A stretch of DNA of 53,097 nt from an uncultured bacterium (GCA_964473505.1 CAYYPG010000002.1:1-53097); one strand, 5' to 3'; counted from the stretch's first letter, positions 1 to 53,097 are shown. A program made the numbers and translations. Notes: a model not told the origin generated them from the sequence alone.

Positions 1-8
1 AAGACAAA

Positions 9-10020: not shown

Positions 10021-10088
10021 AGGAGGCAGTGTCTAATATTTTGTGTAAATTAAGGGTCGATATGAAGAAAAGATGTACTCTCTCCTGA
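10021..10088 (-). repeat. B-family repeat copy
   Basis: The reverse complement aligns with 361-428 and 48381-48448. The core GTGTCTAATATTTTGTGTAAATT is at 10029-10051. Confidence 0.6.
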
Positions 10089-10140: not shown

Positions 10141-10410
10141 ACAAATTACACAAAAATCTTGACACTTTCACTTAATTTCCATTCTTACGCCAAATTCTTT
10201 TGGAATAGAGCGCACTTGTTCTTTATCTTTTAAATACTACTTTTCACCATCTTTTAAGCAAAAATAAACATAAAAACATTAGTTATAACTAATGTTTTAG
10301 ACAAGGCAGATTTTTAGATAAGTTGTTGTTTTTTATAGAGATCTTGCATTTTGACCTAAAAAGAGGGTACAGTCCCCTCCACAGTCCTCTGGATTGCTTG
10401 AAAAATAGTC
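10141..10410 (+). repeat. C-family element, copy 1 (~260 nt)
   Basis: About 75-80% identical by eye to the reverse complement of 51941-52195. Contains a perfect 26-bp palindrome AAAACATTAGTTATAACTAATGTTTT (10273-10298) and the stem AGAGGG..CCCTCT. Confidence 0.65.
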
Positions 10411-10729
10411 AGAAAAGTCGTTTTGAGAAGTAAGGTCAGAAAAATATTGGCGTTACGGGAAGTGTTGGTTTGGGTAAAGATATAATTGTCAATTTATGGG
10501 CAATTGGCAAAATCAGGATGCGTGGAGTCGGAAAAATCATTCAGGAATTAATTGTCTATGCGGATGTTGCAATCATTCTTCTTATTATTATACGATGCGT
10601 TGCCAATATATTGTATCTCAATTCGCCGGCTACTTTATCTAACATTATCAGAACAACATATCGGATTTTATCATTAATCCCTGGCATCTGCTTTTTAAGA
10701 TACTTAAAAGGCGTCTAATAGTCGGGTCC

Positions 10730-12426: not shown

Positions 12427-13011
12427 ATGTATATTCCGATTGTAATTGAACAAACCAGTCGGGGCGAACGGGCTTACGATATCTATTCCCGTCTCTTAAA
12501 AGAACGAATTATCTTTGTCGGAATGCCCATTGATGACAATGTTGCCAATCTCGTAATTGCCCAATTACTGTTTTTAGAAGCCGAAGACCCAGATAAAGAT
12601 ATCTTTCTTTATATCAATTCGCCTGGAGGAATCGTTTCGTCCGGGTTAGCCATCTATGACACAATTCAATATATTCGTCCCAAAGTTTCGACAATTTGTA
12701 TGGGCATGGCGGCAAGTCTTGCCGCATTACTTTTAGCCGCTGGTGAAAAAAACAAACGATTCGCTTTACCCCATTCGCGAATTATGATTCATCAGCCTGA
12801 GGTATCCGGACTGTCCGGACAAGCCACAGATATTGAAATTCACGCCAAGGAAATTCTGCGCTTAAAACAGCAATTAGCCGAACTTTTAGCCAAACACACC
12901 AACCAGCCAATTGAAAAGATTCTTGCCGATTCTGACCGTAATTATTTTATGTCCGCCGAAGAAGCCAAAGAATATGGTATCATTGATGAAGTAATTGAAA
13001 AAAGAAAATGA
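12427..13011 (+). CDS. clpP: ATP-dependent Clp protease proteolytic subunit
   Basis: 194-aa ORF with [26 protein letters not shown], the catalytic context [11 protein letters not shown], and HQP. Confidence 0.95.
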
Positions 13012-13113
13012 GCAAAAATGTTCCTAATCACTTCTCAAACCAAATTTCAATAGAACTTATTAAAACGATGAGCGGAATATTTATAATTGACCATAACGCC
13101 ATGCAGTACTTTT
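12986..13113 (+). repeat. L arm, copy 1 (last 8 clpP codons plus stop, then 102 nt)
   Basis: 128/128 nt identical to the reverse complement of 41993-42119, checked base by base. Confidence 0.9.
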
Positions 13114-13235
13114 TTTGGCAAGGTACAATTGCCAATGTTCCACCTCAAGGTGGCCGAAAGCATCCTGAACAAGAATATATCCAAATCAATACTAAAAATA
13201 TTCTCTTTATCTGCGACCGTCATAGCAGTGAGTAA
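13008..13235 (+). CDS. chimeric 75-codon ORF (L-arm N-terminus plus a 32-codon ClpX segment); expression unproven
   Basis: The ATG overlaps the clpP stop (ATGA). Residues 39-70 are identical to Clp[33 protein letters not shown] see no independent sign that it is functional. Confidence 0.25.
13120..13215 (+). repeat. ectopic copy of an internal clpX segment
   Basis: 94/96 nt identical to 14322-14417. Both mismatches are synonymous T/C third positions. Confidence 0.95.
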
Positions 13236-13274
13236 GAAAATGAGCAGAAATGCTTTTTTGTCAACTAGTCTGGT

Positions 13275-13385
13275 AGAGAACTCTGACAAAGTCAATATTG
13301 GTTCAAAAGACATGAAATGCAGAAGTATAATTATTGGTTTTTTCTTGTAGGGTTCGGTGTCTTGTGAGCATTTTTCAGAGATTTC
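13275..13385 (+). repeat. A-family element, copy A1 (points toward clpX)
   Basis: 108/111 identical to the reverse complement of 41690-41799. Contains the inverted repeat TGACAAAGTCA (13284-13294) and TTCAAA (13302-13307)-18 nt-TATAAT (13326-13331). Confidence 0.85.
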
Positions 13386-21254: not shown

Positions 21255-21760
21255 TAAATCCGTTTATCATAAAGGAATAAAAACCTATATATTTCGTGTG
21301 AAAATCTTTTCAACTAAAAATAGAAAAGGATTAAGTCACCCCAAAATAAGATTGAATAATATCCCACCTATCATTAACAAGTGACCAAGTAAATCTCAAC
21401 TTATTAGAATAAATTCTCTTATCCTTTAAAAAATAAAAGAAACAAACCAATCCAATAAGTTGATTTAAAAATTCATCTATCATTAAGAAGTAAACAGGTA
21501 AACTCTAATAAAATCATCTTAACTTAAAAAAGCAAAAGAATGAAAATAACCCATACATTTTGAGTAAAAATCCGTTTGGCTTAAAAAAGTAAGGGAACAA
21601 AATACCCCAATAAGTTGGTATAAGAATCTATTTATCATTAAGAAATAAATAAATAATAAAAATCCTCTAAACTTAAAAAAAAGAATAAAATGATCCCGTA
21701 CATTTTGAGTAAAATTCGATTATCTTACAAAGAAAAAGAATACATAATTTTTTAACGAAG
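21255..21760. repeat. very AT-rich degenerate tandem repeat block (about 90-155 nt units)
   Basis: Recurring sub-motifs: ATC..TTATCATTAAGAA at about 21258, 21361, 21471, 21626 and 21713; CCAATAAGTTG at about 21451 and 21607; ACATTTTGAGTAAAA at about 21555 and 21699. Confidence 0.55.
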
Positions 21761-21898
21761 CACCCGATTTGGTTTGGTAAGCAATCCAATTATTCATCTC
21801 ATCTGTTGTCTTATTGAACATCTATCAGTTAAATCAAGAGACTACTCAGAAATCAGTTTAAAATACTGTCGATTTGATAGTTGGACAGGCAATCCCTT

Positions 21899-21942
21899 GG
21901 GTACCCCCCTGGATATCCCCTGGGTATACCCTCTGGTATACC
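21899..21942. repeat. four phased GC-rich palindromes, exact 12-bp period
   Basis: GGGTACCC (21899-21906), GGATATCC (21911-21918), GGGTATACCC (21922-21931) and GGTATACC (21935-21942). Their centres are exactly 12 bp apart. Confidence 0.8.
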
Positions 21943-21977
21943 TGGGAGATTGTCCATTAGATAAAGGAGATTGCCAG

Positions 21978-22060
21978 GGAGATATGATCAAATGTTGTGG
22001 AAAATTGAATATATCAATAAAAACACTTGATGAGACCTTATAAAAGGAAAAAGATATCTC
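21978..22060 (-). repeat. D/E repeat unit (reverse D motif plus 55-nt E segment)
   Basis: Colinear with 22245-22328 (GAGATATGATCAAATGTTGTGGAAAATTGAAT..CTTGATGAGACCTTATAAAAGGAAAAAGATAT). Confidence 0.6.
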
Positions 22061-22084
22061 TAATATATCTAAATTAAAATATAA

Positions 22085-22106
22085 CAACTGTTGTGAAAAA
22101 TTGAAG
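22085..22106 (-). repeat. partial reverse D motif
   Basis: CAACTGTTGTGAAAAATTGAAG resembles TCAAATGTTGTGGAAAATTGAAT. Confidence 0.4.
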
Positions 22107-22244
22107 ACATGTCGTTTTATGGGTAAAACAAAAGCGCCGACACCAGTTAAAATATTAATGTGTCGGCAGAAGGACAAATTAACATGAAAGATTATGTCAA
22201 AAATCAAATTAAGTCAAGAACTATCTTGAACCGCCAGCATAAAC

Positions 22245-22366
22245 AGAGATATAATCAAATGTTAGGGAAAACTGAATGTATCGATAAAAATCCCTTGATG
22301 AGACTTTACAAAAGGAAAAAGATATACCTAAACTATAATAAATTTCCACTAACATTGACAATATCT
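22245..22366. mobile_element. MITE-like unit bounded by roughly 25-nt imperfect terminal inverted repeats (D motif)
   Basis: The left end AGAGATATAATCAAATGTTAGGGAAAA pairs with the reverse complement of the right end AGATATTGTCAATGTTAGTGGAAATT (about 21/25 with one indel). It has no ORF and I see no clear target-site duplication. Confidence 0.4.
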
Positions 22367-27878: not shown

Positions 27879-28550
27879 TTATTTCGATAGTTTTTTATGA
27901 CATAACCACCAATCAATACATTCAAATTCACCGGCTTTTGCTTTATCAAATCTTTCTTTAGCGGTTTTAATATCTCGTGCTGGTGGAATAATCACATGGT
28001 CATTCATAATTTCGTTGTTGGGCCAGTTTGCTGGCATGGCAACGCCATATTTATCAGAAATTTGCATGGCTTCGACTGCTCGTAAAATTTCATCTATATT
28101 ACGACCTAATTCTTGAGGATAATAAAGAATGATCCGAATTTTCCCTTTGTCATCAACCACAAATACTGCTCGTACTGTATTTGTTCCTTTGCCCGGATGA
28201 ATTAATCCTAAAGCATCCGCTATTTTACCTGTATCGGCAATAATTGGAAATTCAATTTCCACTCCGAGTTTTTCTTTTATCCACTCTTCCCATTTAATAT
28301 GAGAAAAAACCTGGTCAACACTTAAACCAATAAGTTCACAATTTAGTGCTCTAAATTTATGATATCTTTTTTGAAAAGCAACAAATTCCGTAGTACAAAC
28401 AGGAGTAAAATCAGCCGGATGACTAAATAAGACAAACCACTTACCAGCAAATGCTTTCGGCAAATCGATTTCGCCATGAGTTGTTTGTACTTTCATTTCT
28501 GGGAATAGATCACCCAGAAGTGGCATACTTTTCTTTTCTATGTTGTTCAT
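27879..28550 (-). CDS. peroxiredoxin (Prx6/1-Cys-like subfamily)
   Basis: 223-aa ORF with the active-site motif [17 protein letters not shown] lies 6 nt upstream of the ATG. Confidence 0.85.
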
Positions 28551-28630: not shown

Positions 28631-28883
28631 ATAATTACTGAAACAATAATTTTGTAATTCGATTTTTTTGTTAATAGTTTTTATATGTTTGGCTTTTTTA
28701 TTTTTACAGAACATATGCTGTTTTTCTAGATTCCGATACATAATTATTAGACTAATAAATTTGTAATTCGGTTCTTTTTGTTAATAGTTTTTATATGTTT
28801 ATTTTTACAGAACATATGCTGTTTTTCCAAATCTCGCCACCATAATTATTATGCTATTAAATTTGTAAAATTCAGTTTGTTTG
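28631..28883. repeat. 2.4 tandem copies of a roughly 105-nt unit upstream of prx
   Basis: Units are 28631-28739, 28740-28841 and the partial 28842-28883. Each starts ATAATTAYTRNAMYAATAAWTTTGTAA and the full units contain TATATGTTT..ACAGAACATATGCTG. Confidence 0.8.
28744..28758. promoter_or_regulatory. perfect 7-1-7 inverted repeat (Fur/PerR-type operator candidate) in repeat unit 2
   Basis: TTATTAG-A-CTAATAA. The equivalent positions in units 1 and 3 are degenerate (4/7 and 5/7 arm matches). Confidence 0.35.
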
Positions 28884-28932
28884 TCCCAAGACGCAACCGA
28901 GAAATTTACCTAATTACCTTATCTAATTTTTA

Positions 28933-29896: not shown

Positions 29897-30403
29897 CTAA
29901 TTATTAATGGTTTTGACTCGTTTAAGTCTATGCCGAATACCTGAAACTTGAGAAAAGAAAGTTGAAGATCCTATTGGTTTTGCCAAATCTGTTGGTAATA
30001 CAAAATTACCGGCTTGGTCAGTTTTAATTAATAGTCCATCTAAATTACCTGCGCCATAAGAATCCGTCGCACCGGTTATGATATACCCACCATCGGGTGT
30101 CTGCCGAATTGAACTACCAAAATCATCACCTGTGCCACCGATAGTCTTTTCCCATTGCATTGTGCCCGTGGAATTGGTTTTGATTAGCCAGACATTCTTA
30201 TTATCCGAATAGGTATAACCGGTAATGATATAACCGCCATCGGTTGTTTGCAGTCCCAAAAAGCCATAATCTTCATCGGTTTTATTAAAAGTTTTATCCC
30301 ACTGCCGACTACCTGTGGCTGATGTTTTGATTAACCAAACATCGGTATTTTCTGAATCATAAGAATAAGTGTAACCAGTTATTATATAGCCACCATCGGT
30401 TGT
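29897..30403 (-). CDS. in-frame continuation of the repeat protein after the TAG at 30404-30406
   Basis: The same frame carries three more DGGYIITG...WLIKT units directly after the stop. The track ORF 29897-30259 is only the part downstream of the first Met. This part also ends in TAG. Confidence 0.55.
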   Translation of the reverse strand, partial: TTDGGYIITGYTYSYDSENTDVWLIKTSATGSRQWDKTFNKTDEDYGFLGLQTTDGGYIITGYTYSDNKNVWLIKTNSTGTMQWEKTIGGTGDDFGSSIRQTPDGGYIITGATDSYGAGNLDGLLIKTDQAGNFVLPTDLAKPIGSSTFFSQVSGIRHRLKRVKTINN

Positions 30404-31744
30404 CTATTGGACAGAAAAGCCGTAATCTTCGTCTGCCTTATGATAAGTTCTGTTCCATTGCATATTTCCATTAGCGTCAGTCTTAATCAGCCAAACATCA
30501 ATATTATCATTGTCCCCAAAGTAAGTCCAGCCTGCGATAATATAACCACCATCAGATGTTCGTATAACTGCTTCACCGTAATCTTCCTCATTTTTATTAA
30601 AATTTTTGCTCCATTGCATGGTACCAACAGAATTAGTCTTAATCAACAAAAGGTCGATTCCGTTTAACCCAAGTGTTTCAATACTTCCAGTTAAAATGTA
30701 TCCGCCATCAGGCGTTTGTTGAACTGCTTTTCCATAATCGTCCATCGTTCCACCAAATGTTCTCCTCCATTGTTCATTACCTGATGAATCGATCTTGATC
30801 AACCAAATATCTGAGCCACCGGCACCATAAGATTCGGTTGTCCCAATAATAATATATCCCCGATCAGCAGTTTGTTCAACCGAATAACCATAATCATCAT
30901 ATTGTCCGCCAAAAGTTTTATACCACTGTTCAGCACCTAACGAATCAGTTTTGATTAGCCAAATATCCAAACCACCAGCACCGTAAGACTCGATTGTTCC
31001 AACCATGATGTATCCTCCATCGACTGTTGGTTGTACTGAATAACCAATGTCATCATCGCTAGCACCGAAGGTCTTTGTCCAAAGTAATACATTAGAAACT
31101 ATAATTTGGTGTGGATTTGACCAATTTGTAATTGCATTCTTAATATCTTTTGCTCTTGACTTTATTAAATAAATTCCTTCTGATGTCCAACTATGAGACA
31201 TAGTGCATGTTTGACCGCTTACAATAAAATTAGACCAATTAGAATAGATTCCATCGCCCCAATCAATTTGGTAAGCCACACTGTCATCATCAGGGTCAGT
31301 TGTTGAAGTGCGAAAATTACAGACCACACCAAGTTTTGCAGATGAAGGACCACTTGGCACTGAAGGAATATTGGGTAATTTATTTGCACGAATGGTAATT
31401 TGATGTTCATTTGACCAAGCAGAGACTTTTCCTTTTATATCCATTGCCCGAGCTTTAATTGTATAAGATTTAGCTTTTGACCAAGACTTAGACATTGTTA
31501 TGGAAATACCACTGGATATAAAGTCACTCCATGCTGAAGTGTTGCCATTTCCCCAATAAAATTGATAAGAAACATCATCGCCATTAGGGTCTGTAGTTGT
31601 CGTTGAGAAATTATAACTGCCATATTGATAACCAATTGTAGGCCCAGATGGGCTCAATGGAGGATTCGGTGCTTTATTTTTCTTGCAAGTGATGAACAAA
31701 ATTAATACACCTAATAATAAGGCGATTGACCTATATCGTTTCAT
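30404..31744 (-). CDS. lipoprotein with two PKD-like domains and DGGYI/WLIKTD repeat (beta-propeller-like) units; ends at an in-frame TAG
   Basis: Signal peptide plus lipobox-like LFITC. Two copies of the PKD-like SGP..G....Y.F...T.DP.GD.V.YQ..WGDG module, then at least five copies of T.DGGYI..G...S.G.G..D.WLIKTD..G..QW repeats. Confidence 0.7.
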   Translation of the reverse strand: MKRYRSIALLLGVLILFITCKKNKAPNPPLSPSGPTIGYQYGSYNFSTTTTDPNGDDVSYQFYWGNGNTSAWSDFISSGISITMSKSWSKAKSYTIKARAMDIKGKVSAWSNEHQITIRANKLPNIPSVPSGPSSAKLGVVCNFRTSTTDPDDDSVAYQIDWGDGIYSNWSNFIVSGQTCTMSHSWTSEGIYLIKSRAKDIKNAITNWSNPHQIIVSNVLLWTKTFGASDDDIGYSVQPTVDGGYIMVGTIESYGAGGLDIWLIKTDSLGAEQWYKTFGGQYDDYGYSVEQTADRGYIIIGTTESYGAGGSDIWLIKIDSSGNEQWRRTFGGTMDDYGKAVQQTPDGGYILTGSIETLGLNGIDLLLIKTNSVGTMQWSKNFNKNEEDYGEAVIRTSDGGYIIAGWTYFGDNDNIDVWLIKTDANGNMQWNRTYHKADEDYGFSVQ

Positions 31745-38041: not shown

Positions 38042-38980
38042 TTACATTTTCTCGGACCGCTTATGTTCAGAAAATCTTGAGTGCTGAATTTCTTTTTCAA
38101 TACGTTCCAAACGCTCAGAAATATGGGCAACCACTTCCGCGATAAATCCGAATCCAAAGATTAACAATCCAGCGAGAATGAGCAAGATTACCAAATATAA
38201 TAATGGCCTAAAGCCGTGGCCGAAAAATCGTAAAATCAGAGCAATGATGCCCACGGAAACTCCCAACATCATAATGATAAATCCGAACATTCCTAAATAA
38301 AACAATGGCTTACGCATTATGCGGATTTGAAAGCCTACAGCCAATAGGTCAAATAATCCTACAAAAACCCGAAACGGACTTTGATATTTGGGTTGACCAG
38401 CGTGCCGAGGAAAAATTTGAACTTTTATTTCGCGAATCTCATAACCCCTATCATGTGCCAAAGGAACAAGATAACGATGCCAGTCTTTGCGGAGCGCAAT
38501 AACTTCCCATAATAACTCTTTACGAAATGCTTTCATAGCATTCAAATCATGGACTTTTAAACCAAATATCTTTCGGGCTAAAAAATTATAAATGTTGGAT
38601 ACTCCGCGTTTTTCATATTTGCCTTGTTTCCATCCGACACACATATCAGCACCATTTTCTAATTCAGTAACAAACCTTGGAATATCTGTTGGCGCATATT
38701 GTAAATCCGCATCAAAAATAATTAAATATTCACCTCGGGCAGAACGAGCACCAGTTAAAATTGCTTCGGTCTTTCCTAAATTACGATTATGTCGCTTGAC
38801 AATTAAAAACTTATACACGGAAACCAGCTCAATCGCTTTCTTATAAGTTTCATCTACACTTCCATCATCAACCAAAATAACTTCATACTCAGAGGTAATA
38901 ACCGGCGACAACCTTTCAACGAGCGGAACAATATTCTCCTCTTCATTAAAAGCTGGAATAATAATCGAATACTTGATCAC
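38042..38980 (-). CDS. family 2 glycosyltransferase (polyprenol-phosphate sugar transferase-like) with C-terminal TM helices
   Basis: 312-aa ORF with YSIIIPAFNEE, VDDGSVDET and FDADLQY (DxD). Confidence 0.8.
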   Translation of the reverse strand: MIKYSIIIPAFNEEENIVPLVERLSPVITSEYEVILVDDGSVDETYKKAIELVSVYKFLIVKRHNRNLGKTEAILTGARSARGEYLIIFDADLQYAPTDIPRFVTELENGADMCVGWKQGKYEKRGVSNIYNFLARKIFGLKVHDLNAMKAFRKELLWEVIALRKDWHRYLVPLAHDRGYEIREIKVQIFPRHAGQPKYQSPFRVFVGLFDLLAVGFQIRIMRKPLFYLGMFGFIIMMLGVSVGIIALILRFFGHGFRPLLYLVILLILAGLLIFGFGFIAEVVAHISERLERIEKEIQHSRFSEHKRSEKM

Positions 38981-39319
38981 GCGTAAATTTTATAAAAATT
39001 AACCAAGATGTCAATAGAAAAAATAGAGGTTTTTCAAAGAACATTCTATATGTAGTGTTTTATAATAATACATACAATATATAGTGGTAAATATTTAATA
39101 TTAAGGGATTAAAAAACAGAATCTTTTCAGTGTGTATAGAATAAATAAATGGTTGTGCAGTTTGAAAATCCTCTTTTGTTTAAAAGTTTTTGTCTTTTTT
39201 CATTTGGAAGCAAACGAATTTATATATGAGGGCAAATAATGGTTATTGTTCATGAAGGAGCGTCAAAATTTTTATATATATTGATTCTTTCTTTCATAGA
39301 TGTACTCTTAATGGGTAAA

Positions 39320-41689: not shown

Positions 41690-41799
41690 GAAATCTCTGA
41701 AAAATGCTCATGAGACACCGACCCTACAAGAAAAAACCAATAATTATACTTCTGCATTTCATGTCTTTTGAACCAATATTGACTTTGTCAGAGTTCTCT
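41690..41799 (-). repeat. A-family element, copy A2 (points toward purH)
   Basis: 108/111 identical to A1. The minus-strand TATAAT is at 41743-41748, about 115 nt upstream of the purH ATG. Confidence 0.85.
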
Positions 41800-41950
41800 T
41801 TTGTATCTCTGTTTTTTCATCGACTCCGCAGAGAGTAATTAATTCCAGTTTCGGTCCGGTTGTCCATAATTGTGCTAAAATCGTTTTTGCCACATCTTCC
41901 TCGATTGAATTATTTATCTTCAAATGTAAGGTCAACTCGGTTTTTCCCTT

Positions 41951-42097
41951 TTATCCATTATTTTTAGTCCGATTCTTTAAATATAAAATCATAAAGTACT
42001 GCATGGCGTTATGGTCAATTATAAATATTCCGCTCATCGTTTTAATAAGTTCTATTGAAATTTGGTTTGAGAAGTGATTAGGAACATTTTTGCTCAT
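41951..42097 (-). CDS. 48-codon L-arm ORF, copy 2; expression unproven
   Basis: [35 protein letters not shown] is identical to the first 35 residues of ORF 13008-13235 and is followed by a different tail. Too short for the ORF track. Confidence 0.2.
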   Translation of the reverse strand: MSKNVPNHFSNQISIELIKTMSGIFIIDHNAMQYFMILYLKNRTKNNG

Positions 42098-42119
42098 TTT
42101 CTTTTTTCAATTACTTCAT
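41993..42119 (-). repeat. L arm, copy 2 (includes a copy of the clpP 3' tail)
   Basis: Exact reverse complement of 12986-13113, apart from a 1-nt uncertainty at the boundary. Confidence 0.9.
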
Positions 42120-42231
42120 AATAAAGTTAATTAAAATTAATAAATTAATTTTGAATAATCATAATTTAAAGTTGATTGTGACTTCGTTACATTTTATTAT
42201 CTTTATTTATTGATGTTGTAGTCAATAGACC

Positions 42232-43428
42232 TCAGGCTCCGAATTTTTTCAGTTTTAGACTATGGGCTAATAATAATGGCATCACTTTGGTCTGGTGAAA
42301 TATTCCCAGACTGCCTTGAGCACAGTTTTTTTCAGAAAACTTGTCGTAATTGTCTTTGCGTGCATATGACGAATAAAGTAAAAACGGGTTCGGATGCCAA
42401 GAATGACCTTTTAAGATTGCAGGCGTTGAGTGGTCAGAAGTTATGGCGAGCACATCAAACTTCAGTTGAAGAATCTCAGGTAATAAAGAATCAAATTTTT
42501 CAATCAATTTGATTTTGCCCTCAAAATCGCCATCTTCGCCTTTCATATCAACCTCTTTAAAATGGAGATAAAAGAAATCAAAATCATGTGAATTTTTCGT
42601 CAAGGTCTCAATTTCCGATTCCCAGGTCTCTGCGGTGGCTAATACTTTCATTCCGACTAAACTGGCAATACCCTTATACATTGGATAAGTAGCAATTGCG
42701 GCTGGTGTTATTGGATAAAGACGACTCATCGGCTCAAGATTAGGATTGTGTGCGAAACCCCGTAATAATATGTAGTTGGCTTTGGGTTCATCTTTTAGTA
42801 ATTCTGTTACTCGGCTGATGAAGAGATTAACGATTCTTTCGCTGTGCTTCGCTTGGGAGGAAAGCGCAGCAATTTTAAATGGTGCTTTCCCTTCTTTCTG
42901 CGGATCCGATTCGCTCAAGTCTGAACTTAAATCTTTTCCCCGAAACACAATTACAAAACGATGTTCTTTACCTGGCCGAATAATAATTTCGACATCTTCA
43001 ATTTTTTTAATTGTTTCGGATAATTTTGTACAGATTCTCTGATTTTCTTCAGTAGAAATTCTGCCGGCGCGTCGGTCAATTATAATACCATTTTCTATCG
43101 TGGCAAAATTTGCTCGGACACACAAATCATCAGGTCCGACTTCCAAACCCACGCCTAGTGCTTCTAAAATGCCTCGACCAATTTGATGTTTAATCGGGTC
43201 ATAACCAAACAAAGCCAGATGCGCGGGCCCACTACCAGGAGTAATGCCATAATCAACCGGAATAGTTAAACCCAAACTACTATTTTTAGCCAATTTGTCC
43301 AAGTTTGGTGTCCGGGCTGTTTCCAGTTCAGTCTTACCATTTTGAGGAGGCGTTCCACCTAAACCATCAATAACAATTAATAAAATCTTTTTTTGATTTA
43401 CGGTAAAAAGTGGTTTTAGTAATTCCAT
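42232..43428 (-). CDS. apgM: cofactor-independent phosphoglycerate mutase, archaeal-type
   Basis: 398-aa ORF with LLIVIDGLGG, FFYLHFKEVD..GEDGD and ITSDHSTP, as in metalloenzyme-superfamily ApgM. TGA stop. Confidence 0.8.
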   Translation of the reverse strand: MELLKPLFTVNQKKILLIVIDGLGGTPPQNGKTELETARTPNLDKLAKNSSLGLTIPVDYGITPGSGPAHLALFGYDPIKHQIGRGILEALGVGLEVGPDDLCVRANFATIENGIIIDRRAGRISTEENQRICTKLSETIKKIEDVEIIIRPGKEHRFVIVFRGKDLSSDLSESDPQKEGKAPFKIAALSSQAKHSERIVNLFISRVTELLKDEPKANYILLRGFAHNPNLEPMSRLYPITPAAIATYPMYKGIASLVGMKVLATAETWESEIETLTKNSHDFDFFYLHFKEVDMKGEDGDFEGKIKLIEKFDSLLPEILQLKFDVLAITSDHSTPAILKGHSWHPNPFLLYSSYARKDNYDKFSEKNCAQGSLGIFHQTKVMPLLLAHSLKLKKFGA

Positions 43429-43525
43429 ATTAGTTGTCTAAACTTTTAAGAAAATGCAAGGCAACAATAGTTTTAGTAATTCCATATTAGTTGTCTAAAC
43501 TTTTAAGAAAATGCAAGGCAACAAT
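43413..43525 (-). repeat. exact tandem duplication (56 nt x2, period 57) spanning the apgM start codon
   Basis: 43413-43468 is identical to 43470-43525. Each copy contains CAT (ATG on the minus strand) plus the first five codons. Confidence 0.9.
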
Positions 43526-43635
43526 GAAGTTTACTATCGAACCATTGAACGCAAATAAAAGATCATGAAATACAATCCCGATTTCTTTTTCTCGTCTTCT
43601 AATTCTGCGTTTCGGAAACAATTTATTCCCTTCAG

Positions 43636-44661
43636 TTAGAACTGACTAATAAACCGAATATCATTTTCATAAAAGAGTCGCAAATCGTCAATTCGATATT
43701 TTATCATTGCAATTCGTTCTACGCCCATTCCAAAAGCATATCCCAAATATTTTAACGGATCATAGCCTACGCAAGAAAAGACTGCCGGATGAACCATACC
43801 AGCCCCAAGAATTTCCAACCAACCGGTATTTTTACAAGTCTTACAACCTTGACCATCACAGATAACGCACGAGATAGCAACTTCAGCACTCGGTTCAGTA
43901 AATGGGAAGTATGAAGGTGTAAATCTTATTTTAATCCCTGAGCCAAACATTTCCTGACAAAATTTTTCTAAAGTTCCTTTTAATTCTGCCATACTAACAT
44001 TTTCATCGACAAATAGCCCTTCTACCTGATGGAAAACCGGCGAATGCGAGGCATCGAAATCATCCGGTCTAAAGACTCTTCCTGGCGCAATAATTCTTAT
44101 TGGCGGTCGATTATCTTCCATCACTCGAATCTGAACCGGCGAAGTATGGCTTCGTAAAAGATACTTATTATTTAAGTCTGTTGTCGGTAAATAAAAACAC
44201 GCAATTTGGTCTCGGGCCGGATGTTCTTCGGGAAAATTCAAGGCGGTATAATTATACCATTCAGTTTCTACTTCTGGACCGAGTTTTTCTTTAAATCCCA
44301 TACCAACGAAAATTTGCACGATTTCTTCCATTACTTTTGTAATCGGATGTTTATGGCCTAAGAATGTTTTTTTCCCAGGTAAAGTTAAATCGATGCGCTT
44401 TTGGGCTTTCTTTATCTCTTCTTCAATTTGGAGTTCTGTTTTCTTAATTTCAATAAGTTGTTCCAGTTCTTTTTTGATGCGATTGGCCAATTCACCTTGA
44501 GTACGGCGTTCTTCAAGTTGTAACTTTCCAAGTTCCCTCAAAAAGAGCGTAATTACACCTTTACGACCCAAATATTTTATGCGCAGTTGGTCTAATTCAA
44601 TAAGGGATTTAACATCTTGAATTAACTTTTCCGCTTCCTGTTTAACTCTTATCAAATCCAT
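43636..44661 (-). CDS. pheS: phenylalanine--tRNA ligase alpha subunit
   Basis: 341-aa ORF with class II aaRS motifs (FRPD.FDASHSPVFHQVEG, GFAFGMGVERIAM). Confidence 0.9.
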   Translation of the reverse strand: MDLIRVKQEAEKLIQDVKSLIELDQLRIKYLGRKGVITLFLRELGKLQLEERRTQGELANRIKKELEQLIEIKKTELQIEEEIKKAQKRIDLTLPGKKTFLGHKHPITKVMEEIVQIFVGMGFKEKLGPEVETEWYNYTALNFPEEHPARDQIACFYLPTTDLNNKYLLRSHTSPVQIRVMEDNRPPIRIIAPGRVFRPDDFDASHSPVFHQVEGLFVDENVSMAELKGTLEKFCQEMFGSGIKIRFTPSYFPFTEPSAEVAISCVICDGQGCKTCKNTGWLEILGAGMVHPAVFSCVGYDPLKYLGYAFGMGVERIAMIKYRIDDLRLFYENDIRFISQF

Positions 44662-44840
44662 ATAATTATTCTCTACATTCTGATAATTTTATCATCCTTG
44701 CCATAAGAGAACAATTCTGATGTGATTGAAAATATTCTGTTTAACTCTTATCAAATCCATATAATTCCTCTTTACATTCTGATAATTTTGGTATCCTTGA
44801 GCTATAAGATAGTAATTCCTGATGCGATTAAAGATATTCT
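44638..44840 (-). repeat. tandem duplication (99 + 104 nt, about 85% identity) spanning the pheS start codon
   Basis: Both copies begin CTGTTTAACTCTTATCAAATCCATATAATT and end ..ATATTCT. The upstream copy opens a 22-codon uORF (44692-44760). Confidence 0.85.
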
Positions 44841-44860
44841 ATTCTTTCAGCCGATATGTT

Positions 44861-45244
44861 TTAATTTTTACTTGAAGCGCAGGTCGTTTCATTCAGCTGG
44901 TTTTTTACCAATGTCACTATTTGGTTAAAATCTTCTGGGCTACGAACCGCGATCTCGGCAAGGGATTTACGGTTTAACTCGATACCGGCTAATTTTAAGC
45001 CGTTAATAAATTTACTATAACTTAAACTATGGGGTTTTAATGCCGCATTAATCCGCACAATCCAAAGTGAGCGAAAAACCCTTTTTTTACGTTTGCGTTC
45101 GCGATAGGCGGATTGCAGTGCTTTCATTACTTGGAGACGGGCAGTCTTATAAAGTTTGGATTTTGCACCCCAATAGCCTTTAGCCCGTTTTAACCATTTT
45201 TTTCGTCGTTTCCGAGTCGCAGGACCTGTTTTTACTCTTGGCAT
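44861..45244 (-). CDS. rplT: 50S ribosomal protein L20
   Basis: 127-aa ORF starting [26 protein letters not shown]. Confidence 0.95.
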
Positions 45245-48380: not shown

Positions 48381-48448
48381 TGGGAAGGGAGTACACATTC
48401 TTCTTCAACATATCAATACTGAATCTACACAAAATATTATACACTGCC
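48381..48448 (+). repeat. B-family copy
   Basis: TGGGAAGGGAGTACACATTCTTCTTCAACATATCAATACTGAATCTACACAAAATATTATACACTGCC. A partial inverted core (TTTTGTGTAAATT) is at 48323-48335. Confidence 0.6.
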
Positions 48449-48650: not shown

Positions 48651-49109
48651 TTAAGGACTTACGGTTTTTTTTACCAATGATTTGATATATTCAATTACTT
48701 TACTTTTCGCATTCAAAATCTCGGTGCTTAAATCGGAACTCATCGTAAATGATTTGGGCTGAATGCCAATTAAAGAAATGCGACAATTGTGTTGTCTTTT
48801 TATCAATTCAATTGTTAAAGTTAATGGTAGGGTATGGGTCGACATTAACCCATAGGAAATCTCTTGGATTTCGTTTTCTTCAAAAAATTTAAATTCACCA
48901 GGTTTACCTTCAAAATTACATGCATCAACAAAAATTATCCAATCAGGTTTTTCCGCAACCACTTTATCAATATAATTTTCAGGTGAAATGCCGGCATCAT
49001 AAATTATGACATCATTTAAATTATAAGATGTAAGTTCTTGAGCAATCAGACTGCCAATAGCATCATCAGAACACATTCGGTTGCCAATACCCACTATGAC
49101 TAATTTCAT
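48651..49109 (-). CDS. hydrogenase maturation endopeptidase (HycI/HybD/FrhD family)
   Basis: 152-aa ORF with MKLVIVGIGNRMCSDDAIG and a ..DA....G... ..STH pattern. No hydrogenase structural gene is present in the window. Confidence 0.7.
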   Translation of the reverse strand: MKLVIVGIGNRMCSDDAIGSLIAQELTSYNLNDVIIYDAGISPENYIDKVVAEKPDWIIFVDACNFEGKPGEFKFFEENEIQEISYGLMSTHTLPLTLTIELIKRQHNCRISLIGIQPKSFTMSSDLSTEILNAKSKVIEYIKSLVKKTVSP

Positions 49110-49355
49110 CTTGAGATTAAAGGATTGTAAATGACTGCATAAATTAAGATTTAAGTTCTTGTATGGATAATCAAACTGCCAATAGTATCATCAGAACGCG
49201 TCCGGTTGCCAATACTGACTATGATTAATTTCATTTTAAGATTAGTGGATTGTCTTGGACAGCATAAAACAGAAGTTAAGTTCTTGTGTTATTAGATTTC
49301 AAATGGCTTCATCAGAGGGCATTAGATTATTAATCCAGTTCAGGGCTTTTTTCAT
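49031..49355 (-). repeat. three progressively degenerate tandem copies (about 120-125 nt) of the protease gene's 5' end plus leader
   Basis: Units are 49031-49150 (the real start), 49151-49275 and 49276-49355. ATG equivalents are at 49109, 49234 and 49355. Copy 2 encodes MKLIIVSIGNRTRSDDTIGSLIIHTRT* and copy 3 encodes MKKALNWINNLMPSDEAI*. Confidence 0.8.
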
Positions 49356-50792: not shown

Positions 50793-50944
50793 ATTTCACT
50801 AACCTAACTTAATGAAGTCAAGTAGCCAATTTTAATTAGCATACAAAAATTTCTTTTGCTGTCAAGTAATTTACGGAGAAACCCTGCAAAATGTCCAGAT
50901 TATACCGAGATACGAAAGAAAGACCAAGATACTCATATGTGCGA

Positions 50945-50986
50945 GTTGTGTCACTTGAGATAAGATTGACTCTGTCTGAGTTCTCT
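50945..50986 (-). repeat. partial A-family piece
   Basis: GTTGTGTCACTTGAGATAAGATTGACTCTGTCTGAGTTCTCT matches the distal 40 nt of A6 and the A consensus. Confidence 0.4.
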
Positions 50987-50993
50987 ACAGGAA

Positions 50994-51100
50994 GAAATCT
51001 GAAAAATGTTCAAAAGCCACCAAGACCCATAAGAAAAAAACAACAATTATGTTTCTGCATTTCATACCTTTTGAACCAATATTGACTTTATCAGGGTTAT
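50994..51100 (-). repeat. A-family copy A3 (points toward ptb)
   Basis: About 80% identical to A2 by eye. Its -10 equivalent is CATAAT (51046-51051, minus strand). Confidence 0.7.
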
Positions 51101-51340
51101 TTACGAAAAATTCTCAGGATGGTAAGTAAGCCAATCCGCCACTGATTAATTTTATTCTGTTTTCAGTTCTCCATTCAACACTGGCAGACTTAAATAAGTA
51201 AACAGATATTTATATGATTGATTTTGGGAATTTTTAACTTTTTAGCACTTTGCTGATAATTTTTTATTTATCTGGTAATGATCACATCGCTCATAATAAG
51301 TAAAATGATTTTTTCAAGAACGCGCCCGATTTTGACACAA

Positions 51341-51410
51341 AAGGTAGTGTATAATATTGGAGGTAAATTTAGTATTGATATGTTAAAGAAAAAGTGTCTC
51401 TTTTTGCTCA
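51341..51410 (-). repeat. B-family copy
   Basis: The reverse complement reads GAGCAAAAAGAGACACTTTTTCTTTAACATATCAATACTAAATTTACCTCCAATATTATACACTACC. Confidence 0.55.
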
Positions 51411-51463
51411 TAAATCGATTCTAATATCTCTGCCCGAACTTGATTGTCAAGGTAACTCAATAA

Positions 51464-51570
51464 AAACTCTGAAAAATGCACAAAAGACACCGCGACCATA
51501 AGAAAAAACCAATAAATATGCTTCTGCATTTCATGCTGTTTGAACCAATATTGACTTTGTCAGAGTTCTT
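51464..51570 (-). repeat. A-family copy A4
   Basis: About 85% identical to A2 by eye (CTCTGAAAAATGCACAAAAGACACCG...GAACCAATATTGACTTTGTCAGAGTTCTT). Confidence 0.7.
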
Positions 51571-51587
51571 TCAAAAATTTCTTCTTA

Positions 51588-51905
51588 AAGATAAATGATT
51601 TCCTAAATTGCGGATACGATAATTTTGACTATTATTTTTTGAATGATTTTCTCAACTCCACTCATATTTATTCTACTAATTGCTCATAAATTAACACTTA
51701 TCCCTCTGTTAAAACCGACCCTCAAGACAACTACATTTTTTCATTGAAAAGATTAAATGATTTCCTAAATTATTGATACTATAACCCTGACTATTATTTT
51801 CTGGTTTGTTTACTCAATTCCACTCATATTTATTCTGTCAATTGTCCAGAAATTAATACTTATATTTCTGCCAAAACCAAACCTCAAACCAACTCCCAAA
51901 TTTTT
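51588..51905. repeat. tandem repeat, 2 x about 160 nt
   Basis: The units start at 51588 and 51748 (AAAGATWAAATGATTTCCTAAATT...CACTCATATTTATTCT...). Confidence 0.75.
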
Positions 51906-51940
51906 CCTGACTCTACTTTCCAGGACTACTTTCTTGCCTA

Positions 51941-52195
51941 TTTTTTAAGCAACCCAGAGGGCCATGGATGGGACTGTACCCTCTTTTCAGAACAAAATGC
52001 AATATCTTTATGAAAAACAATAAACTACCCGAAAATCCGGCCTGTTTAAAACATTAGTTATAACTAATGTTTTTGCGTTTGTTTTTAAGTGAAAAATGGC
52101 AAAAAGTTTTAGAAAGATTTAACACAGCAAAGTCTATTGCAAAAAGAAATTAGCGTAAAAAGGAGAATTAAATCAAGTTTGACTCAAAGTCTTAC
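51941..52195 (-). repeat. C-family element, copy 2 (inverted relative to copy 1)
   Basis: Carries the same 26-bp perfect palindrome at 52048-52073. CCAGAGGGCCATGGATGGGACTGTACCCTCT corresponds to 10363-10392 on the opposite strand. Confidence 0.65.
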
Positions 52196-52609
52196 TGAAA
52201 AAAAATATGTATTCAGGAAATAATCGGTTTAGGACCGTATGAAAGTATCCCTGGTTAATGAGAGCTTTATATGATTTCAACTACAAGAGTAAAAATCAGT
52301 GTTCATATCAACAATATCAGTTGAAATGTTAAAAAAAGCCAAATAACAAAATATCATCAAAGGTATTGACTTGCCAGGAATATTACAATCTACGGTTTAT
52401 TTGTTTAGTTTCCCGATATGGCACAGAATGATATTTTCTGACATTCCAATCTCACCTAAATCTCTTTCGGTTAAGGTTGAAGACTTAAGTAGATGATAAT
52501 TTACAGTTTTTCTTGTGAAAGATAGCTGGAATGAAAGTGTATGAACTAAATCTAATTAAGAAAAAATAAAAATCATTAATACATTAAAACTTTCCGACAT
52601 GTCATTATA

Positions 52610-52950
52610 ATAAATGCGTCTGGTATTTTTTTTCTAATCCATAATATTTTTAGTGCCTTAATAGGGGAGTAAAATTTAGGTAAGAAAATAGACCCGGAAT
52701 ACTATGGAAAGGATATTAAAATCTGAATACTATGCAGCATCATAATTATTAATAATATTTTTATCACCTTATCGGGAAATAAAATCCAGTAAGAAAATAG
52801 AGCCTAAATATTATTGATTGGGATACTAAAATCTGAATGCTATGCGTCATCATTAGTCAATATATTAAGCTTATTATATTATCCATAATATGCCTTAGTG
52901 CCTTATTGGGTTCCTAAAATCTGAATACTATGTGCCATCATTAGTCAAAT
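52610..52950. repeat. tandem repeat, about 3 units of 90-110 nt
   Basis: TAAAATCTGAATRCTATGYRNCATCAT recurs at 52717, 52827 and 52915, and the flanks also align. Confidence 0.7.
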
Positions 52951-52967
52951 ATTAAGAAAGAAAACGC

Positions 52968-53042
52968 CGAAAAATACTCAAGGGACGTCGAGTCCCCAAA
53001 AAACCAACAATTGTGCTTTCTGCATTTCATACCTTTTGAAAC
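52968..53042 (-). repeat. A-family copy A5 (diverged/partial)
   Basis: ..AAAAAACCAACAATTGTGCTTTCTGCATTTCATACCTTTTGAAAC matches the central part of A. Confidence 0.45.
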
Positions 53043-53097
53043 GGTGCTGTGCCAAGACATTGTATCTCTTTCCAAGGACCTAATTCTACGGCTACTT

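Follow-up and report, generated by a model that had tools for sequence, protein, structure and literature searches.

A tandem duplication spanning the start of apgM in a candidate division WOR-3 bacterium and its alleles in close relatives

Introduction

Tandem promoter duplications that raise the expression of a downstream gene are known from laboratory selections and from clinical isolates. In Escherichia coli, the leader peptide pheM lies upstream of pheST. Here we analyze a tandem duplication at the 5' end of apgM in a 53,097-nt stretch of DNA from an uncultured bacterium (GCA_964473505.1 CAYYPG010000002.1:1-53097; referred to as the window, with coordinates counted from its first letter). 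We compare it with these two systems, with short tandem segmental duplications of the kind seen in variable-number tandem repeats and with leaderless mRNAs. A literature search for start-codon-spanning duplications, or for leaderless genes in WOR-3, found nothing relevant.

The apgM duplication belongs to the ordinary class of short tandem segmental duplications. As in that class, its copies lie head to tail, are identical, are found at twice the depth of their surroundings and vary in number between strains; unlike typical members, it has a long unit (57 nt) that includes a start codon. Simple slippage, on the other hand, does not predict what is found at the same junction in the related strain L120, where a non-homologous filling of 45 nt separates two 21-nt repeats. 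With tandem promoter duplications the locus shares a unit that covers the region of the complete apgM promoter of WOR-3 relatives, which would make two promoters plausible, but in the window itself the unit resembles the promoter consensus only weakly. The likeness to attenuation leader peptides such as pheM consists in a short open reading frame (ORF) immediately upstream of the gene, and in a comparable echo of the pheS 5' end located between rplT and pheS. Unlike those systems, however, the locus contains no regulatory codons, alternative hairpins or terminator, and the peptide is unconserved and equal to the duplicated N-terminus. Finally, the predicted promoter of the relatives abuts the ATG and there is no Shine-Dalgarno sequence, as in leaderless mRNAs, so that a unit of ~57 nt could be a self-contained expression start; the point of difference is that the window's own -10 box is poor.

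Results

Structure of the Duplication

The apgM gene of the window encodes a cofactor-independent phosphoglycerate mutase of 398 aa and lies on the minus strand at 42232..43428 (Pfam PF10143, 2.6e-49; PF01676, 1.1e-41). Its upstream neighbour is pheS (43636..44661, minus strand; Pfam), and rplT, infC and thrS are found upstream of pheS. The true start of apgM is confirmed by the N-terminus ME(L/F/I)..., which is conserved in relatives.

Tandem Repeats Finder (TRF) identifies positions 43413-43525 as a perfect two-copy tandem repeat (period 57, 2.0 copies, 100% matches, score 226), the only perfect one among the long-period repeats in the window. BLAST of the window against itself aligns 43413-43468 with 43470-43525 at 56/56 identity (E = 1e-22). 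Both methods thus confirm the exact 56-nt duplication with a period of 57 that a preliminary description of this DNA had claimed. The block is laid out as 56 nt, a single odd base at 43469 and the identical 56 nt. Read on the minus strand, each unit consists of 40 nt of upstream sequence followed by ATGGAATTACTAAAAC, and the content ascribed to it earlier (leader, ATG and five apgM codons) is what the sequence contains. The proximal unit (43413..43468, minus strand), which is supported by TRF, by the sequence and by a 56-nt unitig, comprises the 40 nt adjoining apgM, the ATG and the next 13 nt, which run through codon 5 and one base into codon 6. The distal unit (43470..43525, minus strand) is an exact copy of the proximal one, as seen from the 56/56 identity and from the junction 31-mers present in the read sets X1/X2 and X3 described below. 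Relative to the apgM start codon, the duplicated 57 bp extend from -41 to +16.

The distal ATG, at 43485, opens a 15-codon ORF with the predicted product MELLKLLLPCIFLKV (43438..43485, minus strand). Translation bears out the earlier statement that this upstream ORF ends, with a TAG codon, 9 nt before the ATG of apgM; since 57 nt correspond to 19 codons, it is in frame with apgM.

The 57-nt periodicity is broken solely at the junction base 43469, which reads T on the minus and 'a' on the plus strand; both of its period-mates, 43412 and 43526, are 'g'. On the minus strand, position 43526 is C in the window and T in its relatives L118 and L120. If an ancestor with this T underwent a simple 57-nt duplication and position 43526 then mutated from T to C, exactly the sequence of the window would result.

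Read Support for Two Copies

Read evidence was taken from k = 31 Logan unitigs of public runs. Two runs, X1 and X2, gave identical pieces and depths and were counted as one data set, and X3 is another run of the same sample. In X1 the unitigs flanking the repeat have depths of 22.1 and 21.5, and a 56-nt unitig equal to the unit has a depth of 43.4, so that in the X1/X2 unitigs the unit is about twice as deep as its flanks. A 61-nt unitig, 43439-43499, is made up of exactly the 31-mers that contain the junction base 43469. Its depth in X1 is 14.5, which is below the ~22 of the flanks and at odds with the unit depth of 43.4. In X3, a 252-nt contig (43247-43498) runs through the junction.

Might the assembler have passed twice over a single 56-nt unit? 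The perfect identity of the copies is what such a stutter would leave behind, and the apgM repeat interrupts other assemblies of this strain (GCA_900096875.1 and Logan SRR7473445). Such breaks, however, are expected of a true repeat that exceeds k. A stutter cannot generate the junction 31-mers that include the odd base 43469, which were found in X1/X2 and in the independent run X3. Nor is it compatible with a unit depth twice that of the flanks, or with a two-copy structure having the same junction in a related strain from a different sample. We therefore consider an assembly artifact to be virtually out of the question and reject it at the k-mer level on the strength of the junction k-mers and the doubled depth. 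Since the reads contain the junction 31-mers and the unit is present at twice the flank depth, the two copies are real. The depth across 43400-43540, proposed in the preliminary description as a check against assembly stutter, accordingly speaks for two copies (junction 31-mers in X1/X2 and X3; 43.4 for the unit versus ~22).

Alleles in Related Strains

The closest named genomes are bins of candidate division WOR-3, with ApgM proteins 86% and 83% identical to that of the window, and the source organism belongs to this division. Two hot-spring strains, L118 (run X6) and L120 (run X4), are ~94-96% identical to the window in DNA. L118, the closest strain, contains a single apgM unit, the alignment skipping 57 nt, and the single-unit form alone was seen across the apgM locus in this sample, at a depth of about 200. 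L120 carries an insertion of 66 nt, composed of 45 nt unrelated to the unit and a 21-nt repeat, so that the 21 nt CTAATATGGAATTACTAAAAC are present in two copies with the same junction as in the window (AAAAC-T-A...). The insertion point is identical to that of the window, after +16 and beginning with 'TA'. Three close strains thus have three alleles, namely a single unit, +57 nt (the window) and +66 nt (L120), with one shared insertion point. The two-copy arrangement is derived, as seen from the single unit in L118/X6 and from the spacer between pheS and apgM, which is 207 nt long in the window and 40 nt in the relative L119. Copy-number variation is described here as three alleles in three strains or samples, given that 31-mers cannot tell one-copy from two-copy cells inside a single sample. 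The junction had no exact match in the genome collection, and the allele with two identical copies is so far private to the strain of the window.

Six of the 40 positions of the apgM leader differ between the window and L120, in comparison with 0 of 56 between the window's own two copies, which places the duplication, or the last homogenisation of its copies, long after the strains diverged. There is a counterpoint, in that a random recent event would share the junction of L120 by coincidence only roughly 1 time in 50. This argues for one of two options, an older duplication with homogenised copies in the window or a hotspot at this site. Under common ancestry, the copies would later have been homogenised in the window and replaced in L120; under a hotspot, the same place would have been hit a second time.

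The second of these options is part of a broader alternative, in which position +16 of apgM (after codon 5) is a mutational or recombinational hotspot and a directed process duplicates or rebuilds the 5' ends of the clade's genes. Such a process might be replication in conflict with a polymerase that has stalled close to the promoter, or some site-specific activity not yet recognised. The insertions of 57 nt and 66 nt share the junction coordinate and their first two bases, as this alternative predicts, but common ancestry followed by homogenisation or replacement can also explain the same junction. A further argument for a hotspot comes from a sister species (L003/L121), in which the same gene boundary was duplicated independently. 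Within its 127-nt pheS-apgM spacer (L003 3874-4000; L121 2875-3000), a stretch echoing the apgM 5' end at 15/16 positions (p = 0.0055) comes before an echo of the pheS 3' end that is identical at 18/18 positions to the pheS end of L119. L003/L121 have here an older duplication of independent origin, extending across the stop of pheS and the start of apgM. The boundaries, however, vary both between genes (+16, +24 and +72/+97) and between lineages (+16 versus about +33 at apgM), and no common motif is visible at the unit ends.

Several other ways of accounting for the locus were examined and rejected. The proximal 45-nt leader of L120 is not a diverged copy of the unit, having no detectable similarity to it (p about 0.94 versus shuffles), and no source of these 45 nt was found in the window or in 121 loci. 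A third, older apgM echo at ~43526-43580 scores no better than shuffled sequence (p = 0.8). Microhomology based on 'AAAC', which occurs upstream of the unit and at its end, predicts AAAAC-TTC-ATTG, and the sequence observed is AAAAC-T-ATTG. In a CRISPR-like reading, with a 21-nt repeat and a 'spacer' of 36-45 nt, the 'spacer' of the window turns out to be the adjacent leader. The target-site duplication of a mobile element was likewise dismissed, as only a copy of the adjacent leader lies between the 21-nt repeats of the window and the 45 nt of L120 match nothing examined. Separately, both hot-spring strains (X4 and X6) have a 12-nt in-frame insertion within apgM at the position corresponding to 43338, giving a protein of 402 aa in place of the 398 aa of the window.

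Echoes at Other Genes

The preliminary description had also pointed to older echoes of the same structure at pheS and at the hydrogenase-protease gene, and both are real and common to strains. At pheS, a tandem duplication of period 99 with two full units and about 85% identity (44638..44840, minus strand) fills almost all of the spacer between rplT and pheS, which is 199 nt long in the window and 69 nt in L119. The unit consists of about 75 nt of upstream sequence, the pheS ATG and 21 nt. The coding part of the echo is identical at 24/24 positions and the leader at about 80%; the distal ATG opens a 22-codon ORF (44760..44692), and the echo is in frame with pheS. The same 99-nt duplication is present in L120. 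This strain has, in addition, a 28-nt tandem duplication directly before the pheS ATG (L120 3612-3668), and a gene caller reports a 55-aa ORF across its pheS echoes. At hycI (48651..49109, minus strand; Pfam), encoding a HycI-type hydrogenase maturation protease, an array with a period of about 125 and 80% identity covers the 5' end of the gene and the region upstream (49017..49316, minus strand). Two copies are clear (49017-49287); the third is decayed but in register (p = 0.064 for its similarity without counting the register). The ATG of the hycI echo, at 49234, opens a 27-codon ORF, and strain X4 shows the same two-copy layout.

The clpX case is different. Positions 13120-13215 are a 96-nt copy, 98% identical, of the internal clpX segment 14322-14417, at a distance of 1.2 kb. 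This is not a 5'-end echo but a dispersed internal copy inside a mosaic repeat of ~400 nt. The ~400-nt element occurs twice in inverted orientation, between clpP and clpX (12982-13385) and between purH and apgM (41690-42122), and its arms are near-identical (131 nt at 99% and 111 nt at 97%) with unrelated middles. The copy between clpP and clpX begins within the last 30 nt of clpP and carries the 96-nt clpX copy in its middle. We also considered the middle of the other copy as a captured gene fragment and discarded this idea, its only matches being the syntenic place in L118 and L120.

Promoter, Leaderless Start and Attenuator Tests

A promoter-like pattern of the sigma-70 type, TTGAC(A/T)-16/17-xAxxxT-4..8-ATG, precedes apgM in 8 WOR-3 relatives and in 0 of about 30 loci of other lineages. 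No Shine-Dalgarno sequence is found at apgM, pheS or hycI, and strong AGGAGG sites are present at many other genes of the window. In the relatives only 4-8 nt separate the -10 box from the ATG, and a Shine-Dalgarno sequence is missing; the apgM mRNA is therefore probably leaderless in the WOR-3 phylum, and the 57-nt unit is probably a whole promoter-plus-start module, as predicted from these sequence patterns. A look for transcript starts in metatranscriptomes turned up no RNA run that lists the locus. The unit of the window itself is a weak match to the promoter consensus (TTGCCT-18-TAGACA-6-ATG, or TTGCAT with awkward spacing), and a strict promoter scan of the unit found no promoter. Given this weak match and the lack of a terminator between pheS and apgM, the unit may not be a promoter at all. 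Elsewhere in the window, a site of the textbook leaderless type, TTGACA-16-TAAAAT-6-GTG, is located at 38981-39020, before a family-2 glycosyltransferase gene (38042..38980, minus strand). Together with the many strong AGGAGG sites, it indicates that both modes of translation start seem to be used.

The region 43300-45000 contains no terminator-like sites and has no match in Rfam, and the folding of the leader is on a par with that of shuffled sequence (z = 0.19). With no structure, no terminator and no Rfam match, an attenuator or riboswitch was rejected.

These results bear on the proposal that the two units are a selected regulatory device, acting either as tandem promoters or through an upstream ORF that tunes apgM by termination and reinitiation, with pheS and hycI as older examples. 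Several observations fit this proposal. Two ATG-bearing copies are kept in two strains, and in L120 the two copies agree in all 21 nt around the ATG despite unrelated leaders. The pheS and hycI echoes are common to strains, and the one at pheS, with its coding part better preserved than its leader, occupies the position of the pheM leader peptide in E. coli. Faster divergence of the leader is, however, expected anyway, as one of the coding copies is the real gene under selection. The upstream-ORF peptides are of varied length (15, 22 and 27 codons, and 55 in L120), contain no Phe-rich or other regulatory codons and correspond to the N-termini of the genes running into the leader, as at apgM. 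Neither L118 nor L119 has the apgM upstream ORF. The units are accompanied by no RNA structure or terminator, and the closest strain does without a second unit altogether, the single-unit form being the sole one across its locus at a depth of about 200. A regulatory role for the upstream ORF is thus not supported, and we regard a selected device of either kind as distinctly improbable.

Duplication Density and Gene Starts

Direct repeats of at least 35 nt lying within 600 nt of each other were collected by self-BLAST from the window, its relatives and 113 loci of other lineages. The window has 10 events in 53 kb. Among the relatives there are 2 in the 7.5 kb of L120, plus the one at apgM, 1 in the 9 kb of L003 and 2 in the 17 kb of L119. 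The 113 loci of other lineages yielded about 8 events outside protein-repeat arrays in 790 kb. The same density picture was obtained from TRF, and short-range duplications are roughly 20-fold denser in this clade than in the control loci. The spacers of L119 measure only 69 nt (rplT-pheS) and 40 nt (pheS-apgM), which indicates that those of the window's lineage became 3- to 5-fold longer through duplication. Small dispersed repeats have also contributed to the growth of spacers in this clade.

Three of the 10 duplications in the window span a gene start, none spans a stop and 7 lie in spacers. We simulated the expectation by placing events of the observed sizes at random and discarding only those wholly within genes; 48% then fell in spacers, 21% spanned a start, 21% spanned a stop and 9% spanned both. 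The start-spanning share of 3/10 compares with 21-30% of the simulated survivors. It is what chance and purifying selection would give, and we therefore find no targeting of gene starts. Stop-spanning events (0/10) fall short of the about 2-3 expected, a mild asymmetry in small numbers (P about 0.03-0.1). The earlier assertion that there are too many of these echoes for random slippage consequently holds for the overall density (10 in 53 kb versus about 8 in 790 kb) and fails for gene starts (3/10 versus 21-30%).

The hotspot reading can draw on the 3 start-spanning and 0 stop-spanning duplications of the window. Against it, 7 of the 10 duplications do not involve a gene start, and the count at starts matches the random expectation. 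Together with the varying boundaries described above, these numbers lead us to consider a hotspot at +16, or a directed process at gene 5' ends, unlikely. The excess of echoes most likely reflects a clade-wide high rate or tolerance of short duplications, not a mechanism aimed at gene starts.

Other Repeats in the Window

The window contains several further repeats. An element of ~45 nt, TTCTTCAACATATCAATACTGAATCTACACAAAATATTATACACT, is found at 48401-48445 and 380-424 on the plus strand and at 10028-10072 and 51346-51390 on the minus strand, all four copies lying between called ORFs. Its depth in X1 is 1082, compared with 21.5 for the flanks, corresponding to about 50 copies on many contigs, and it is multi-copy in X4 and X6 too. 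A dispersed family of ~110 nt with 84-97% identity (13275-13385, 41690-41799, 50995-51098, 51463-51569 and 52998-53040) is intergenic in all its copies and forms the right arm of the ~400-nt element. An inverted pair of 363 nt (10172-10526 and 51819-52171) has 75% identity, and its members share a perfect 26-nt palindrome (10273-10298 and 52048-52073).

ORFs of at least 90 aa cover only 73% of the window. Its last 2.3 kb (50793-53097) have no ORF longer than 64 aa and contain tandem and dispersed repeats with periods of 88, 110, 161 and 469. A repeat array at 21268-21748 and 21979-22344 has units of about 70-155 nt and three similar minus-strand ORFs of 38-50 aa; the same region (21268-22344) contains a pair spaced 267 nt apart with 84% identity. 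The 121-aa ORF at 21842..22207, which matched no Pfam family, is possibly not a gene. A tandem repeat of ~109 nt (28631-28884; 2.3 copies, 80% identity) lies in the 577-nt spacer preceding a peroxiredoxin gene (27879..28550, minus strand) and ends 81 nt before the start codon. Periodic repeats of 156 nt at 30264-31056 lie in a PKD-domain gene (30404..31744, minus strand) and run past its stop towards the ORF 29897..30259, a pattern suggestive of a repeat protein that was split or frameshifted.

Discussion

The reading we favour, with a probability of roughly 0.7, is that the apgM duplication is a real, young, strain-specific tandem duplication of 57 bp that arose by slippage or unequal recombination, that it is one of many in the spacers of this clade, and that it is tolerated. 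Its origin would most likely have been replication slippage or unequal recombination. Its persistence could be understood from the proximal copy, which would keep apgM and the immediate 40 nt upstream intact. As the sequence from -40 to +16 is identical in both copies, the distal ATG would be expected to work about as well as that of the gene itself. This might add a second start of transcription and lead to translation of the 15-codon upstream ORF, with ribosomes terminating 9 nt before apgM. The net effect on the output of apgM would probably be small, with little effect on fitness. The duplication might also behave as an unstable, contingency-like locus.

A more far-reaching interpretation can be built on the same material. 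In it, promoter-plus-start modules of the WOR-3 clade would be duplicated and rebuilt time and again at favoured break points (+16 of apgM would be one), and the spacers would be decaying arrays of echoes that supply promoters, upstream ORFs and possibly N-terminal extensions; the last are conceivable because at both apgM and pheS the echo shares the reading frame of the gene. We hold this interpretation to be rather unlikely. If it were true, the 5' ends of genes would turn over through an ongoing, possibly directed process and not through rare accidents.

Taken as a young and tolerated duplication, the apgM locus is a small and ordinary variant. It is also a clean, read-supported case in which a whole expression start, as predicted, was copied in one step, and its value lies in three alleles caught in three close natural strains. 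For annotation, echoes of this kind matter in that they give rise to false small ORFs (the 55-aa 'gene' called before pheS in L120 is one) and break assemblies made with short k. If the clade-wide excess of short duplications holds genome-wide, these bacteria would offer a natural system in which to follow the birth and decay of promoters and upstream ORFs, and would point to an underlying trait of replication or repair.
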